64,000 nucleotides of DNA, taken from contig CAVXVB010000005.1 in the NCBI GenBank assembly GCA_963765205.1, forward strand, positions 480,001 through 544,000, written 5' to 3'. The position numbers and the translations under genes were made by a program. Position 1 is the stretch's first letter. The number at the start of each line of letters is the position of its first letter. Source of the stretch: an uncultured Verrucomicrobiae bacterium. GTDB lineage: Bacteria > Verrucomicrobiota > Verrucomicrobiia > Opitutales > JABDGR01. Under the pieces are notes generated by a model. It was not told where the DNA came from and ran no database searches. It worked only from the letters and a program-made list of their open reading frames with translations. This document shows positions 25,591 through 30,570 of the stretch, piece by piece.

Positions 25591-25943
25591 GTTGTGTTCT
25601 AAAATTGGCTTGATCCGTAGCGCGGAGGCCACTCCCTCTTTTTCCCACTTGACCTTAGTGATTGATATAAGGCCATTTGCGAAAGAATGGAGAGTTTTGC
25701 GGATACCGATGGGCCAGTGAGTGGGAACGAACCAAAGACCACTCTTAAGCCCGTTCCGACCCGAAATATACGTGTTCCGAACCTAAAAATCGAGCCAAGT
25801 TTCATCGTTCACCACCCGCAAACCGGGGTGGCTAACGGTTGCCTAAGAAGCCCCAGCAATGCTGCCTAATTGAGTCAGAGGCACCCTATTGGAGTGTGGA
25901 AAAAAGGCCTTGCAAGCGGCAGTTCCTGGTGGCACAGTGTCTA

Positions 25944-25997
25944 GAGCGACCAGTTGGGCCGGTTTCATACCGACCCGGGTTTATCCCCTGGCCGCTC
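25944..25997 (-). ncRNA. Structured RNA overlapping the 3' end of the DUF3800 gene (DUF3800-RNA-motif-like three-way junction)
   Basis: GAGCGGCCAG / CUGGUCGCUC outer stem encloses hairpins GGG-AUAAA-CCC and GGGUCGGU-AUGAA-ACCGGCCC; preceded by an A-run. Confidence 0.65.
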
Positions 25998-26762
25998 CTT
26001 TTTTTGTTGGGAAACCAACCAGTCGATAGTGTCCTTATAGGCTTCGTTGCCGCGATAAATGAGCGGCTCGATTAAGCTAACGCCGCCATCGTCAATCGGT
26101 CTTGAGGGGAAGCCAGCCTTGGCTTCCTCTTTTTTACGCGCACTGTAAACGCACAGGTCGCATAGTTGAATTAGCAAGCTTGATGCCGAATCGATAAAGA
26201 AGCCTTTTTCGATGATCTGTCCAAGTTTCAGCGTTCCTTCCGCGCCCCGGAGAAGTTTGATGGCTTTCTCAACGTCGCCAATAATTTCCCGGTTGTCATC
26301 CGCAATAAAAATACCCAATGGCGACCCAGGCAAAGCCTTGAGATATTCATCCACGACCCGGGCAACCAGAGGAAAAGCAGCAACATGCGGATTGATAATC
26401 ACGCCGGAGCCGAACGTGCTTTGAATCCAACCTTGAAAACGCTTTTTGCTGATTGCCCGATAAATGAGTTTGAGGCCATGCTTTTGAGCGACTTTCAAGC
26501 ATTCGTCACGAAAAGCCAAACGATGACTTACCGGGAAACTGCGGAAGTGCCCCTCGCCATTGCGCAAGCCTTTAGCATGAATTTCAAAGCGATCCGGGCG
26601 AGGCGAAGGGAAATATTTTTCCACGATTCCCCCAAGCTCCTTCTCCATAGGCAGCCAAGTGGTTTCAGGAACGACCAAGGCAGCCAAAACGAAAACGGGT
26701 TGTGCCGCGTCGTTGAGGTTGTTTCCTGTCTGGCCTGATTCGTCAAAATAAACAAGGTGCAT
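25965..26762 (-). CDS. DUF3800 domain protein (predicted RNase H-like fold)
   Basis: MHLVYFDESG start, FEIHAK, IFIADD, SLLIQLCD (QxxD) motifs. Confidence 0.85.
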   Translation of the reverse strand: MHLVYFDESGQTGNNLNDAAQPVFVLAALVVPETTWLPMEKELGGIVEKYFPSPRPDRFEIHAKGLRNGEGHFRSFPVSHRLAFRDECLKVAQKHGLKLIYRAISKKRFQGWIQSTFGSGVIINPHVAAFPLVARVVDEYLKALPGSPLGIFIADDNREIIGDVEKAIKLLRGAEGTLKLGQIIEKGFFIDSASSLLIQLCDLCVYSARKKEEAKAGFPSRPIDDGGVSLIEPLIYRGNEAYKDTIDWLVSQQKKERPGDKPGSV

Positions 26763-26923
26763 GATAACGAGCAACAAGGGTGCAACGTCAGGCCATTTAA
26801 GTCCATGCCATACTTGCCGGAAGATAAATCTGCCTGGATCCGCCCTGATTTCAATTGATCAAAGAGAAACGGCGTGCTTAAAGTTCCATAGCGGCTAAGG
26901 AACTTGGACTGTCTTGGGCTAGA

Positions 26924-29479
26924 TCACCCAAAATCCAAACGCGGAGCGGAAACCTCATTTTCCAAATCCATTCGATAGCCCATTTGCCTATAGGCGCTGC
27001 ATCGGCGACGGAACATTGCCAATGTCACCGGGTGGTCGTCAAGGTAATCGTAGATTTGGACTTCGTGCTTATCAATATGCGGACGATGCAGACGACCGGC
27101 GTATTGAATCAGCCGGCCTTTGAACGAGAGCGGCATCGAGAGGATCAGCGTATCCAGCCGAGGAAGATCGTACCCTTCACCGATAAGCGAAGCGATGGCG
27201 AGAATCACAAACTTACCACCAGTCTCGAACCGGTGATCAATTTCTTCCCTCATCTTTTGCCGGAGTTTTTTGCCGGTACCACTTTCAAGTCGAAAGACCA
27301 CCACATCTGCGGAGCCAATGGCTATTGCGAGCGCTGCTTCGATCTTGGCAAGGTGGCCCTTCCGATCCGACAGCACCAGCGGGCACCGACCCGCATCAAG
27401 GGAAAGTTGGATGTCTGCCACGACTTGCTTTGTGCGGACAGGATCGTCCACGAGCGCCTGCCAGATGCGGTGAATGGGTTGTCGCGCACCATGATCTGCT
27501 GGGACAAGAAATGAACTTCTGCGCACATGCACGGTTTTCGACAGTGTTTCTTCGACTGAGGCGCTTGCCGTGTGGCGAATCGGTCCACATTGCAAATATA
27601 GCAATTTCTCAAGGCTGTCCTTCCGGACAGGGGTTGCCGTGAGCCCGACGATCTTTCGGACAGGACAAGCCTTGAGCAGCGCCTCGAAAGAAACGGCGGG
27701 CACATGGTGGCATTCATCAATGATCACCAAGCCATAACCCTGAAACAGCGCGGAGTAATTCTCCGCCCGTGTAAGGCTTGGCAACATGGCGATGTCGAGT
27801 TGGTGGGTGAGGCGCCTAGAGCGCCCACGCCAGACGCCGATTTCCTTGCGCTTGAGACCGAGCAAGTTTCCCGCTTCCTGACGCCATTGATCAAGGAGTA
27901 TGTTGCGGTGAACCAGCACCAGCGTAGAGGTGCGATGGCGGGCAATCAGCGCGCAGCCAATCACGGTCTTACCCGTCCCCGGCGGGGCACATAAAACGCC
28001 ATAATCATGCCCAACCATTTCTTTTACGGCAGCTTCCTGGTCCGGACGTAGCTCCCCGTGGAATTTCCAGCGCACACGCGCCCCATCAGAACGAGCGTCC
28101 AGAAGAGTGACATTTGCGCCAGCAGATTCTAGAATCGCGACGGCGGCATCTACCGTTCCGCGAGGAAGCACCAGCCGATCAGGATGCCATTCTCCCGCGA
28201 AAATAAACCGCGGCGTGTCGTAAGTCGGGAAACGCAACCGCAATTTCTCGTGAAAAACTGGATTTGCAAAAGTTGCGAGCCGCTTCAGTGCGGCCAGCAG
28301 GCCCGCGGGAATTGAGCGTGGAATATGCAGCTGCGCATCAAGGCGAACGGTGAGTTCGCCCGAAATGACGCCGCGCTCAATCGCGGGCCGAGACAAATCC
28401 AAGGCGCATTCATCGCTCTGCAAGGAGAAAGCCGAACTGGGTGAGTTCGTAATTGGGCCGAGTTGAATTAGCGGAGCGATGCGCGCCAAGATTTGATCCA
28501 GATCAGGCCGCGCCAAACGGTGGATAGCGGACAAAAACGACCATTGATCGGTGTGCGGTTTGAATTCGTCGTCTAAAAAAACAGTGTTCGCCATTTTGCG
28601 TGGCGCTTTGGCCAACGGCAGGGCGATGAGGTTGCCAAATCCTCCTTCTGGCATTGTGTCTTGGTTGGGGAAGAGCCGGTCGTAGGCCCCGAGGCTCATG
28701 GCGGGGTGTGTAGCTGACGCTTTCGCGAGCAGGATAGTGCCTAATCTCCGGGCCAGTGCCGCTGGAACTGGTTCGGCAAAAAAGATCCAAGCGTGAGCAC
28801 CATTGCCGGAACGCGAGCGTTCAATTGAGACTTCAACCCCGCACTTTCGGGCAGCATCCCGATAAGCGACAATATCGTTTCGCCAACCGTCCCCATCAAA
28901 ATCAGCCGCGATAAAAACACATGAATCGTTCTCCCGCAGGGCATAGACGCCAATGGTCTGATCCCCACGCAAGTGCGCCTCAATGGCGCGCTCATCGAGG
29001 GGAGGAAACCGTTGATGGCAACACTCCGCGCATTTTATCTGTGGCTTCCGGCAGATGCCCGGCTTCCACTCGTTGTCGCAGGCTGGCGAGTAACCCTTCT
29101 TCCCTGTCTTGGTGTTCTCCCAGAATTTCGGATAGACGGATTTCCTGGCACCAAACAAGTCAAGGAAGAGCGCAATTTTTTCACCGGGTCGCAATCCCGC
29201 AGTTCCACTCCGCTCGCGTTTCGTGAAATCCAGCTCCGATGCTGGCCGATTTTGCAACCGCTGTAACTCTTGTTCGGTGGCTCGTTTTTCAATTTCAAGT
29301 GCATCTACCCGCCGGCGCAGTTCCTCAATTTTGGACTCACGGCCCGTCTCCACACCGACAACGGGAGTGTCTTCGCCTAGGTGGCCGGCGCGCGGGTTCA
29401 TGGCAATCGGACTTATCTTCGTCGGCAACGCCTTATTCGCAAGCTTTTCGTGCGCTAGTTTGTCCGGCGTGTATTTCAC
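26924..29479 (-). CDS. TOTE-type archaeo-eukaryotic primase domain fused to a ResIII-like SF2 helicase
   Basis: GYSPACDNEW, FIAADFD, ERSRSGNGAHAWIFF, YDRLFPNQD..GGFGNLIALPL; APPGTGKT, IIDECHH, GLTATP, QYAGRLHR; start uncertain. Confidence 0.88.
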   Translation of the reverse strand: MKYTPDKLAHEKLANKALPTKISPIAMNPRAGHLGEDTPVVGVETGRESKIEELRRRVDALEIEKRATEQELQRLQNRPASELDFTKRERSGTAGLRPGEKIALFLDLFGARKSVYPKFWENTKTGKKGYSPACDNEWKPGICRKPQIKCAECCHQRFPPLDERAIEAHLRGDQTIGVYALRENDSCVFIAADFDGDGWRNDIVAYRDAARKCGVEVSIERSRSGNGAHAWIFFAEPVPAALARRLGTILLAKASATHPAMSLGAYDRLFPNQDTMPEGGFGNLIALPLAKAPRKMANTVFLDDEFKPHTDQWSFLSAIHRLARPDLDQILARIAPLIQLGPITNSPSSAFSLQSDECALDLSRPAIERGVISGELTVRLDAQLHIPRSIPAGLLAALKRLATFANPVFHEKLRLRFPTYDTPRFIFAGEWHPDRLVLPRGTVDAAVAILESAGANVTLLDARSDGARVRWKFHGELRPDQEAAVKEMVGHDYGVLCAPPGTGKTVIGCALIARHRTSTLVLVHRNILLDQWRQEAGNLLGLKRKEIGVWRGRSRRLTHQLDIAMLPSLTRAENYSALFQGYGLVIIDECHHVPAVSFEALLKACPVRKIVGLTATPVRKDSLEKLLYLQCGPIRHTASASVEETLSKTVHVRRSSFLVPADHGARQPIHRIWQALVDDPVRTKQVVADIQLSLDAGRCPLVLSDRKGHLAKIEAALAIAIGSADVVVFRLESGTGKKLRQKMREEIDHRFETGGKFVILAIASLIGEGYDLPRLDTLILSMPLSFKGRLIQYAGRLHRPHIDKHEVQIYDYLDDHPVTLAMFRRRCSAYRQMGYRMDLENEVSAPRLDFG

Positions 29480-29640
29480 CGCTTGAAATAATAGTGATAA
29501 TAAATAATATTAAAATATATAAAATCTATTATTAATAAATAGTAATCGTATTACAGCCGCTAATGGTATATGGATCGTCGCCTGAAAACTAAGGTGATTT
29601 CACTAACACATTATTCAACAAACGCTTATGAAACCTAAGC

Positions 29641-29668
29641 GCGGGCGTAGCCGGGCGGCTACTCCCGC
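29641..29668. other. attP-like junction: 13-bp inverted repeat centred on a GG dinucleotide
   Basis: gcgggcgtagccg-GG-cggctactcccgc; 12 of 13 arm positions are complementary. Confidence 0.75.
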
Positions 29669-29787
29669 TTTTTGCCACTTGCACTTAGTCATTGCATATA
29701 AACAAGTTGCGGTAAATCGGCGATCCAAGCGAGCTTAATTCACCGACTATTTTCGCCCAAGTGGGAAAGGTAAGGCCCCAACCCCTT

Positions 29788-30093
29788 TCAGGCCCCCGAT
29801 TGCAAATAACTCTCAATGCGCTGATTCACAAAATGCAAATGCCGCAATGACAAATAAATAATGGTGGCAGTCACGCAAAATATGACCGTCAAATTGGCTG
29901 CGAAGCTAGTCATGCCAAATCCAAAATAATATCCGTAAACGGCTAGTAAAGGAATCGAAAGGCAAATGATGGTGATAAGAAACGCAATGTGACGCTTCCG
30001 AAACTGTGCATCTTGGCGGAATAACAGACTGTGGATGGCTTGCCTTTTGGCAAGGCGTTCGCGTTTCGTCCAGATGTAGGTTTGTAGTTTCAT
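29788..30093 (-). CDS. Hypothetical two-TM membrane protein (cargo of cassette 2)
   Basis: 101-aa AT-rich ORF with two hydrophobic stretches. Confidence 0.55.
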   Translation of the reverse strand: MKLQTYIWTKRERLAKRQAIHSLLFRQDAQFRKRHIAFLITIICLSIPLLAVYGYYFGFGMTSFAANLTVIFCVTATIIYLSLRHLHFVNQRIESYLQSGA

Positions 30094-30570
30094 ATTGCCG
30101 GGGTCGGGAGACGGGGGTTAAGCATTCTCGCTCCCAAATCTCAAACTGACTTATCACCTTAAAAACAGCACTTGGCAAATCTGAAAGCGCAATTTATTAT
30201 AAGCACAGTCGTTGCAATCCGAACGATATTTTTATAAATACATAAACAAAAAACACTTAAGAAACACCAGCGTGGGCGTAATCGGGTGCTTTAGTCCGCG
30301 CTTTAAGCGCTACGAACGCCTCCGAGCGCGGGCTAAAGCACCGCGCTACGGACAACTGGCCAAATTGATTCATGGGTTAAAACAGAACCTAGTCGGGGCA
30401 TCTATTCGTGGCCATGATGCCGCTCCTCATCCAGACTCCCAGCTCCCGGCTCGGAGCCTGGGTTGTTTTTCCCGAGGGCCGGACACTGCCAGCCGCTGGG
30501 TCGTCGTCCCATCCGTCCTATCTACCGCATTCCTCCCATCCCTTGCCCAATGGAATTGCGCAAAATCGCC

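Follow-up and report, generated by a model that had tools for sequence, protein, structure and literature searches.

Recombinase-free gene cassettes targeted to REP sequences in an Opitutales genome

What kind of element splits a repetitive extragenic palindromic (REP) sequence in two and fills the gap with genes, none of which encodes a recombinase? The question is raised by a locus in the genome of an uncultured Verrucomicrobiae bacterium of the order Opitutales (GCA_963765205.1, contig CAVXVB010000005.1, positions 480,001 to 544,000), a stretch of 64,000 nucleotides that is referred to below as the window. An earlier examination of the letters alone (the sequence-only reading) had described two gene-bearing units stacked in tandem at a GG dinucleotide within a REP. 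Here, we followed this observation through the window, the rest of the genome, related genomes and metagenome contigs, and found that the units belong to a real, well-defined family of recombinase-free, REP-targeted gene cassettes.

Two units inside a split REP

At this locus, one arm of a repeat that we call REP-1 is interrupted: tccgtagcgcGG stops at 25625 and tgctttagtccgcgct resumes at 30287, with 4.66 kb between them, and the rejoined halves are identical at 27 of 28 positions to the reverse complement of the intact arm at 30325-30352. Two units, U1 and U2, lie between the halves, and their ends match each other. The left ends (LEs; 25624-25664 and 29654-29694) share 34 of 41 positions without gaps and the right ends (REs; 29616-29655 and 30247-30286) share 31 of 40, compared to 23/41 and 25/40, respectively, for the next-best ungapped matches on both strands of the 64-kb window. 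The U2 LE was also recovered (E = 7.7e-5) by a profile built from four other LEs, with U2 left out. The inserted block is lower in GC content than its flanks (0.43-0.60 in U1 vs. 0.60-0.70 in the flanks). The split REP is real, right at every coordinate and far above chance, and every count of the sequence-only reading was reproduced, along with its layout of left attachment half-site (attB-left), unit 1, unit 2 and right half-site (attB-right), with GG at all three junctions. Two of its details can be refined. The 13-nt inverted repeat at the middle junction, GCGGGCGTAGCCG-GG-CGGCTACTCCCGC, is centred on GG as described, but it is imperfect, its arms being complementary at 12 of 13 positions. 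The crossover GG is inside the REP, at the border between stem and loop rather than in the middle of the palindrome, the 5' stem arm ending with these two bases (AGCGCGG/CCGCGCT, with a 9-nt loop). The U1/U2 junction reads as the closing joint of an excised circle would be expected to read. Features of the block are as follows, in window positions:

25614..25625, + strand: left half of the split REP-1 arm and left part of attB (tccGTAGCGC plus the core GG at 25624-25625), assigned by sequence; the same GTAGCGC-GG flank, with up to 1 mismatch, precedes 17 of 31 LEs
25626..29655, + strand: cassette U1, 4.03 kb, whose terminal GG (29654-29655) is shared with U2; LE and RE profiles
25626..25780, + strand: conserved non-coding LE of U1, ~150 nt; alignment of 28 LEs and nhmmer
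25965..26777, - strand: cargo gene for a DUF3800 protein, 270 amino acids (aa); Pfam PF12686, E = 5.3e-13
26924..29479, - strand: cargo gene for an AEP-TOTE primase domain fused to an SF2 (ResIII/DEAD) helicase, 851 aa; Pfam PF22548, E = 5e-91, and PF04851, E = 3.4e-23; PADLOC PrimPol, E = 5.3e-80
29616..29655, + strand: RE of U1, ending ..GCGCGGGCGTAGCCG-GG; sequence and profile
29641..29668, no strand: RE-GG-LE junction of U1 and U2, with the 13-nt inverted repeat (12/13) around GG; base-pair count
29656..30286, + strand: cassette U2, 0.63 kb, its LE conserved over only ~50 nt plus a degenerate inner block; profiles and alignment
29788..30093, - strand: cargo open reading frame (ORF) of U2, a 101-aa hydrophobic protein by translation, with no Pfam or PADLOC match
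30247..30286, + strand: RE of U2, ending ..GCGTGGGCGTAATCG-GG; sequence and profile
30287..30302, + strand: right half of the split REP-1 arm, tgctttagtccgcgct, and right part of attB; sequence
30325..30352, - strand: intact partner arm of the REP-1 doublet, REPIN-type (REP doublet forming hairpin) and head to head; sequence and genome search

The left neighbor of the block is a secretin gene. Near-identical relatives of the U1 cargo occur in other peat metagenomes (window 26110-29194; e.g., 57 differences over 2.07 kb), and the same metagenomes also hold LEs joined to other flanks.

Copies, cargo and mobility of the cassettes

U1 and U2 are two of at least 31 copies of a single, lineage-restricted cassette family. 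We compiled 31 LEs from six genomes, i.e., the host genome (G000; 4.02 Mb, 12 contigs, 92% complete) and five relatives, and from ten metagenome contigs of peat and soil that supplied ten more copies; the genomes compared were 83-96% complete, and two rows of the compilation (M073 and M074) shifted by one base on re-reading. BLAST and profile searches of the host genome beyond the window revealed five further copies, namely cassette A (~0.7 kb), cassette B (4.04 kb, with a hybrid histidine kinase and a response regulator), cassette C (with a 905-aa CarboxypepD_reg protein) and a tandem pair on contig C10, and insertions are spread over at least five loci of this genome. Cassette A (contig C5, 215733 to about 216425) lies between GTAGCGC-GG and the outer part of an opposite REP arm (..gtGGcaccgcgctacgga); since the inner REP halves and a normal RE are missing, it is probably a deleted or fixed copy. 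A search of 41 genomes found LEs in 7, one of these being a marginal case; among the 9 other genomes of the bacterial family 6 had them, and among the 31 from other families none did. A wider scan for the LE pattern in 151 genomes of the order gave convincing matches only in the same family, three single 1-mismatch matches outside it looking like chance, and a scan of viral contigs gave 0 matches.

Insertion follows a common pattern. A GG core marks 30 of the 31 left junctions and every one of the 11 right ends. Apart from the 17 LEs that follow the REP-1 head GTAGCGC with no more than 1 mismatch, three follow it with 2 mismatches, seven follow the RE of another cassette, one follows the head of a second repeat (REP-2, see below), one is ambiguous and two have other flanks. 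Since 7 of 31 LEs abut another cassette's RE, tandem stacking is common, in agreement with the arrangement first read at the locus; pairs are the only stacks seen. Both ends are present in 11 cassettes (0.63-12.1 kb), eight of which are followed by the right half of REP-1 and three by another LE. Cassettes always have the same orientation relative to the REP, and rejoining their flanks gives a REP with a single GG. With 31 LEs and 11 two-ended cassettes, the prediction that these ends would recur elsewhere with different cargo, GG junctions and the same REP family held true.

A cassette carries up to six genes, which lie on both strands. When 83 ORFs from the cassettes and their immediate surroundings were scanned against Pfam, no recombinase or transposase family was detected, which supports the units being non-autonomous. 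In contrast, the supposition that cargo would be of a defence type is true of U1 only, and the family carries mostly metabolic, regulatory and membrane genes. Examples include a 12.1-kb cluster of GH78 and GH106 rhamnosidases, esterases and a LacI regulator, a 9.9-kb cargo of PPK2 plus an ATP-synthase operon, a P-type ATPase, sigma and anti-sigma factors, an FMN reductase with SnoaL and LysR, Imm33, DUF1264, a PALP enzyme, and several small membrane proteins. Two candidate transposase genes were examined and rejected. The 453-aa ORF of a 1.95-kb cassette begins like a signal peptide, and a search of five genomes with it returned no match but itself, in G008. On contig C2, the gene enclosed by two REP-1 copies that face outward belongs, by sequence, to a sigma/anti-sigma pair. 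A motif of ~22 nt (..aaaaagcaatttcctatcagt..) recurs just upstream of ORFs in several cassettes (L068, twice; L073; L047; L076), which might have a promoter or leader in common here, or else a joint of some other type.

The same cassette occurs at different sites. One that encodes a 116-aa membrane protein (95.7-98.3% aa identity) was found in three metagenome contigs with unrelated left flanks, nucleotide homology (94.7-98.2%) beginning no more than 4 nt from the LE boundary. At the locus in the window, the secretin gene is separated from the downstream gene by 5.0 kb vs. 110-308 bp in 6/6 same-genus genomes, and neither REP-1 nor a cassette lies between these two genes in any of the six. Similarly, five loci orthologous to those of relatives' cassettes have neither REP nor cassette in the host genome. 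Since the other species has neither REP nor cassette at the loci compared, no exact empty REP allele, which the sequence-only reading had looked to relatives to provide, was obtained, and the rejoined REP is the best substitute for it; the cross-species loci show presence or absence of the whole block, cassette plus REP. The best-covering public assembly has the same structure across all three junctions. A joint of 25716 to 30325 in one public run (side 28) was rejected as an excision product, as a different cassette lies between its LE-like stretch and the REP.

Ends, targets and candidate enzymes

REs are ~40 nt long and finish in the consensus ..CTAAGCGyGGGCGtAAcCa-GG. LEs start with GG-nGGCTACnCTCCC-TTTT-sCCAyTTG..TTAGTGATTGAT and are conserved over ~150 nt, or ~220 nt in nine copies, the similarity among four long copies of the host genome reaching nhmmer E values of 1e-43 to 1e-50. 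The LE of U1 holds a GGCTAC-type terminus, the TTsCCAyTTG block and TTAGTGATTGAT, and an inner block of the LE at about +105 to +130 (CCGTAG/CCAAAG..CTTAAGCCCG) is REP-1-like. The terminal base beside GG varies (a/c/g/t at the LE). At the RE, GTAaCCa-GG resembles the left half of the target, GTAGCGC-GG, and at the LE, GG-nGGCTACnCTCCC or GG-tGGCTACnCTCCCGC resembles the right half, GG-TGCTTTAGCCCGC; the cassette ends mimic both target halves. Within the LE, alignment columns 20-26 form a 7-bp long-range inverted repeat with columns 115-121. Its pairing holds in 85.7% of cells vs. no more than 54% when slid, and it shows compensatory changes (CG 17, GC 4 and GU 2 at one pair) at a level reached by 0 of 500 shuffles. 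RNAalifold on nine long LEs extends this helix and pairs the terminal GGGCT with AGCCC of the inner block. A promoter-like TTsCCA-18-TGnTATAAg was seen in the LE by eye and was not called by a promoter scan. About 200 nt inside U1 (window ~25815-25840), ..caaaccgGGgtggctaac.. looks like a second RE-GG-LE joint, as it does in L040 (G008) and seven other long LEs. What is conserved on the left might therefore be a very small cassette in its own right, non-coding and joined to the cargo, by analogy with the ssr9 module of ISPpu9, an insertion sequence compared below.

How, then, might such cassettes move? We favor, at slightly better than an even chance, the reading that they are non-autonomous cassettes inserted by way of a circle through conservative site-specific recombination at GG, by an enzyme acting in trans that is most likely of the IS110 type. 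A cassette would consist of the ~150-nt conserved non-coding LE and the ~40-nt RE around arbitrary cargo of 0.6 to 12 kb. The joined RE-GG-LE site of the excised circle would exchange at GG with the REP GTAGCGC-GG-TGCTTTAG, placing the cassette in the REP in a single orientation, and either hybrid junction, with its restored GG, could then admit a second cassette to give a tandem stack. The invariant, non-palindromic GG, the single GG on rejoining and the fixed orientation all argue for conservative dinucleotide exchange by a trans-acting enzyme, and the exact RE-GG-LE joints in stacks, together with the long LE and short RE, argue for the same circle-to-REP exchange. Among possible suppliers, a dinucleotide-core recombinase of the IS110 (DEDD, bridge-RNA) type would be the likeliest, since the layout works like the A'/B' modules of ISPpu9; supposing the general mechanism to be right, we would put this type of enzyme a little short of an even chance. 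The junctions agree with IS110 elements in having a short shared core (GG at 30/31 and 11/11) with no further duplication.

Several results weigh against this reading. Donor and target are alike in both halves, which fits recognition by a protein at least as well as IS110, if not better, as IS110 elements need no donor-target likeness beyond the core. The reading of the LE as a bridge RNA gained no support: Rfam gave no match to the LE, its two local hairpins were no better than shuffles, and no guide-like covariation of LE segments with the cassette's own ends was seen by eye. No IS110-type recombinase was linked to any cassette. PF01548 had 0 matches in the host genome and a match in one of five relatives (G003), and this G003 copy, with no LE, RE or REP beside it, was rejected as a master element. 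The host genome holds the 3' part only of an IS110-type gene (PF02371, 33 bits). This relic (contig C9, 211040-211186) spans ~130 codons, is frameshifted and has no recognisable ends; it, too, was rejected as a master element, there being no LE, RE or REP beside it. Finally, neither an RE-LE joint of one cassette nor an empty site was present in assembled contigs of public runs. Since no DEDD recombinase (PF01548 plus PF02371) was found in any cassette, or with matching ends in a genome, and since donor and target are alike, we class the cassettes as ISPpu9-like in their working. However, the genomes are 83-96% complete (92% for the host genome), so the gene for the enzyme could be missing from the assemblies.

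The inverted ends also bring to mind a DDE insertion sequence. The units could be internally replaced derivatives of such an element, in the manner of mobile insertion cassettes (MICs) or of MITEs (miniature transposable elements bearing inverted repeats), having terminal inverted repeats and a 2-bp GG duplication. The terminal inverted repeats match at 12/13 at U1/U2 and at ~9/13 between consensus ends (by eye), and GG on each side is formally equivalent to a 2-bp duplication. Moreover, some IS3-family DDE insertion sequences target REP loops. Insertion sequences that target REPs are among those listed in the portion of Tobes and Pareja (PMC1525189) drawn on here. However, the variable base beside GG at both ends would be unusual for DDE termini, one subfamily of cassettes (contig C10) is without the inverted repeat, and the ends mimic the target halves. 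In addition, no autonomous copy with cassette ends was found in the six genomes or the metagenome contigs, a search in which DDE families were not taken one by one genome-wide. We consider a DDE origin very unlikely. The same search, together with those described below, means that neither the autonomous version nor the trans-acting recombinase foreseen by the sequence-only reading was found.

The targets point in another direction, that of the REP machinery of the host. In the host genome, REP-1 (GTAGCGCGG TGCTTTAGC CCGCGCT) has 64 copies at up to 4 mismatches and 74 at up to 5, 52 of the latter forming 26 head-to-head doublets, and it is kept in 9 of 10 genomes of the bacterial family, including the cassette-less G004 (7 copies) and G007 (15 copies). 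REP-2 (TAGCCGTGGACTTCAGTCCACGG) has 14 copies. The divergent tandem pair on contig C10 follows TAGCCGT-GG, the head of REP-2, and both its RE (GTAATCGT-GG) and its LE start mimic REP-2, not REP-1; its LE is divergent and, by eye, the inverted repeat is absent from its junction. There are two cassette subfamilies, paired with two REP families. Considering that the targets are genuine REPIN-type repeats, a REP-associated tyrosine transposase (RAYT) of the HUH class might move the cassettes as single strands, cutting after ..GTAGCnnGG in the left flank and at the RE, as in IS200/IS605. RE and left flank do carry the same GTAnCnnGG motif, all junctions can form hairpins, and one RAYT gene (C5:148180) lies between inverted copies resembling REP-2, the target of the C10 subfamily. 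On the other hand, the crossover is inside the REP stem arm, whereas RAYTs and IS608 cleave outside the hairpin; none of the three clear RAYT genes is flanked by REP-1; G004 and G007 have REP-1 and no cassettes; and the orientation of cassettes relative to GC skew is mixed, albeit a weak indication. On balance, movement by a RAYT is unlikely. As an observation in its own right, a RAYT-like gene for a 172-aa Y1 transposase in the host genome (contig C5, 146680-150027) is enclosed by two nested pairs of inverted repeats, of which the outer closely copies the REP-2 hairpin with its 14 copies; an Opitutales genome thus shows the classic REP-RAYT arrangement.

Another possibility is that a protein-only site-specific recombinase reads both the REP and the REP-like RE-GG-LE site, be it a serine enzyme that crosses over at the 2-bp GG or a tyrosine enzyme that, like that of integrons, acts on folded strands. 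This would agree with the invariance and non-palindromic nature of GG, with the inverted repeat around the core of RE-GG-LE (12/13) and with the likeness of both site halves to the target in two subfamily/REP pairs. The LE can also fold, its terminus pairing with the inner AAGCCC block, and a second helix has compensatory changes, a loose resemblance to a folded attC. Set against this are the absence of the inverted repeat in the C10 subfamily (by eye) and the results of the search for an enzyme. The GG core would suit an IS607-type serine transposon, whose recombinase starts with a DNA-binding domain. However, no IS607-type gene was seen, and both serine recombinases of the host genome have the catalytic domain first (residues 26-158 and 17-161). 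One of these, a 505-aa large serine recombinase, was rejected as the enzyme: it is the integrase at the edge of an 11-kb island, low in GC, within a comM-like gene, and it has orthologues or fragments in G002, G003 and G006 and none in the cassette-bearing G008. The second is resolvase-like and has no link to cassettes. Tyrosine recombinases gave 17 matches in the host genome. None of five genomes had a match to the integron integrase model TIGR02249 above its 265-bit cut-off, and the best matches (~80 bits; maximum ~83 bits) look like ordinary Xer-type recombinases. Thus, we regard a protein-only recombinase as improbable. Beside these candidates, two other loci may be recorded. The island that contains the 505-aa gene (~11 kb; contig C9, about 1449000-1460000) lies inside the comM-like gene and has a GC content of 0.45-0.57 vs. 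0.62-0.68 in its flanks. The serine recombinase forms one edge and a tyrosine recombinase lies close to the opposite one, and the island also has a NucS/PDDEXK-like gene. In G008, contigs C52 and C58 carry several tyrosine-recombinase genes side by side, which may be an element of the recombinase-in-trio type.

There is also a bolder alternative. The cassettes might constitute a gene-capture system that runs on host REP machinery, in which the attachment site mimics a REP and a REP-specific enzyme kept by the host, either a RAYT or a novel recombinase, moves multi-gene cargo between the many REP copies of the chromosome. We think this rather unlikely; if true, the cassettes would form a pool in the manner of an integron where no integron exists, and REP/REPIN machinery would for the first time be seen to move genes that encode proteins. 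If, instead, the favored reading of circle-to-REP exchange by a trans-acting enzyme is true, then one bacterial family shares a pool of plug-in cassettes for which two short ends and any of dozens of REP sockets suffice; a conflict system, a cluster for the use of polysaccharides, ion pumps and regulators are among the cargo seen. It would also extend IS110 modular mobility, in that a small-RNA passenger would give way to protein-coding cargo that is large and diverse, and the range would widen from Proteobacteria to Verrucomicrobiota and to genomes without a visible master element. The two subfamilies and two REP families, with their target-mimicking ends, offer a natural test set for discrimination between donor and target. 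For annotation, such cassettes account for islands of foreign genes that have no adjoining integrase, tRNA or insertion sequence.

Comparison with known systems

Integron cassettes, which are recombined between attC and attI by IntI, are recombinase-free, have a foldable site, stack in one orientation, draw on a diverse pool of cargo and depend on an enzyme in trans, and the present cassettes resemble them in all of these respects, in the last by the favored reading. The differences are that no intI was found in five genomes, that there is no single platform of attI plus promoter, and that attC core motifs are absent; moreover, the cassettes sit in dispersed REPs, can contain several genes that face either way, and are stacked only briefly, pairs being all that was seen. 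Neither of the two hallmarks of an integron, i.e., IntI and a single platform of attI and promoter (Pc) with an array of mostly promoterless, single-ORF attC cassettes, was observed. Passenger genes without an enzyme of their own, lying between recombination or transposition sites, are also found in MICs and in the pdif modules of Acinetobacter. MICs (e.g., IS231-MIC231) have DDE ends, longer duplications and low target specificity, and pdif modules carry their passengers between 28-bp XerC/D sites on plasmids; no such 28-bp site is evident in the cassettes.

The REPIN-RAYT system shares with the cassettes the head-to-head REP doublets conserved across the family and the dependence of a non-autonomous unit on a gene elsewhere, as set out in the parts of PMC3116915 and PMC3337134 consulted, and cassette ends are REP mimics. 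By those accounts, REPINs carry no genes (PMC3116915, PMC3337134). The cassettes differ further in that their ends are REP-like and not REP copies, and no RAYT is tied to REP-1.

Although the sequence-only reading did not recognise the layout as one already described, there are two precedents, the recombinase-free modules of ISPpu9 (PMC12288879) and expanded IS110 loci (10.64898/2026.08.14.744561), so "not described" is too strong. In the literature, with supplements to bioRxiv preprints outside the scope, we found nothing closer to a pool of REP-targeted, protein-coding cassettes. The second precedent concerns loci that grow by the addition of cargo, and from which transposase-less partial circles reintegrate, according to the portion of that preprint used here (10.64898/2026.08.14.744561). 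They share with the cassettes the stepwise gain of cargo at an occupied target and the tandem modules, and we count the reintegration of transposase-free partial circles at independent sites as a further likeness. As far as this portion goes, expanded loci have a resident IS110 transposase and bridge RNA as their anchor, and just one donor half is matched at the boundaries inside them, whereas each cassette has both conserved ends and no resident transposase.

ISPpu9 is an IS110-family element of Pseudomonas putida. In the sections of PMC12288879 that we draw on, it inserts into a REP between nt 9 and 10, with an AG core at both ends, and is bounded by a 43-bp A box and a 16-bp B box; its recombinase-free A'-ssr9-B' modules occur in tandem or as orphans and form their own circles. 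In elements of the IS110 family, the long non-coding end encodes a bridge RNA, the loops of which pair with target and donor (PMC11208160, in part), and the available part of a preprint on ISPpu10 has its recombinase acting in trans (10.64898/2026.03.19.712850). On these partial accounts, the cassettes and the ISPpu9 modules have in common a REP target entered at a fixed position and with a single orientation, a dinucleotide core at each junction, of which the element supplies one copy and the target the other, and a long left box and a short right box, the left one being target-like. Both are recombinase-free and stand in tandem or as orphans, those of ISPpu9 being moved in trans through circles. 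The ISPpu9 cargo is, as far as described there, a single small RNA gene, and a master element bearing the transposase lies in the same genome, usually adjacent. The cassettes, in turn, have a GG instead of an AG core and an Opitutales host, and among at least 31 copies none was found with a master. By analogy, therefore, the cassettes would work like ISPpu9 modules, with membership of IS110 unproven, and what sets them apart from these modules is their diverse, protein-coding cargo of up to 12 kb.

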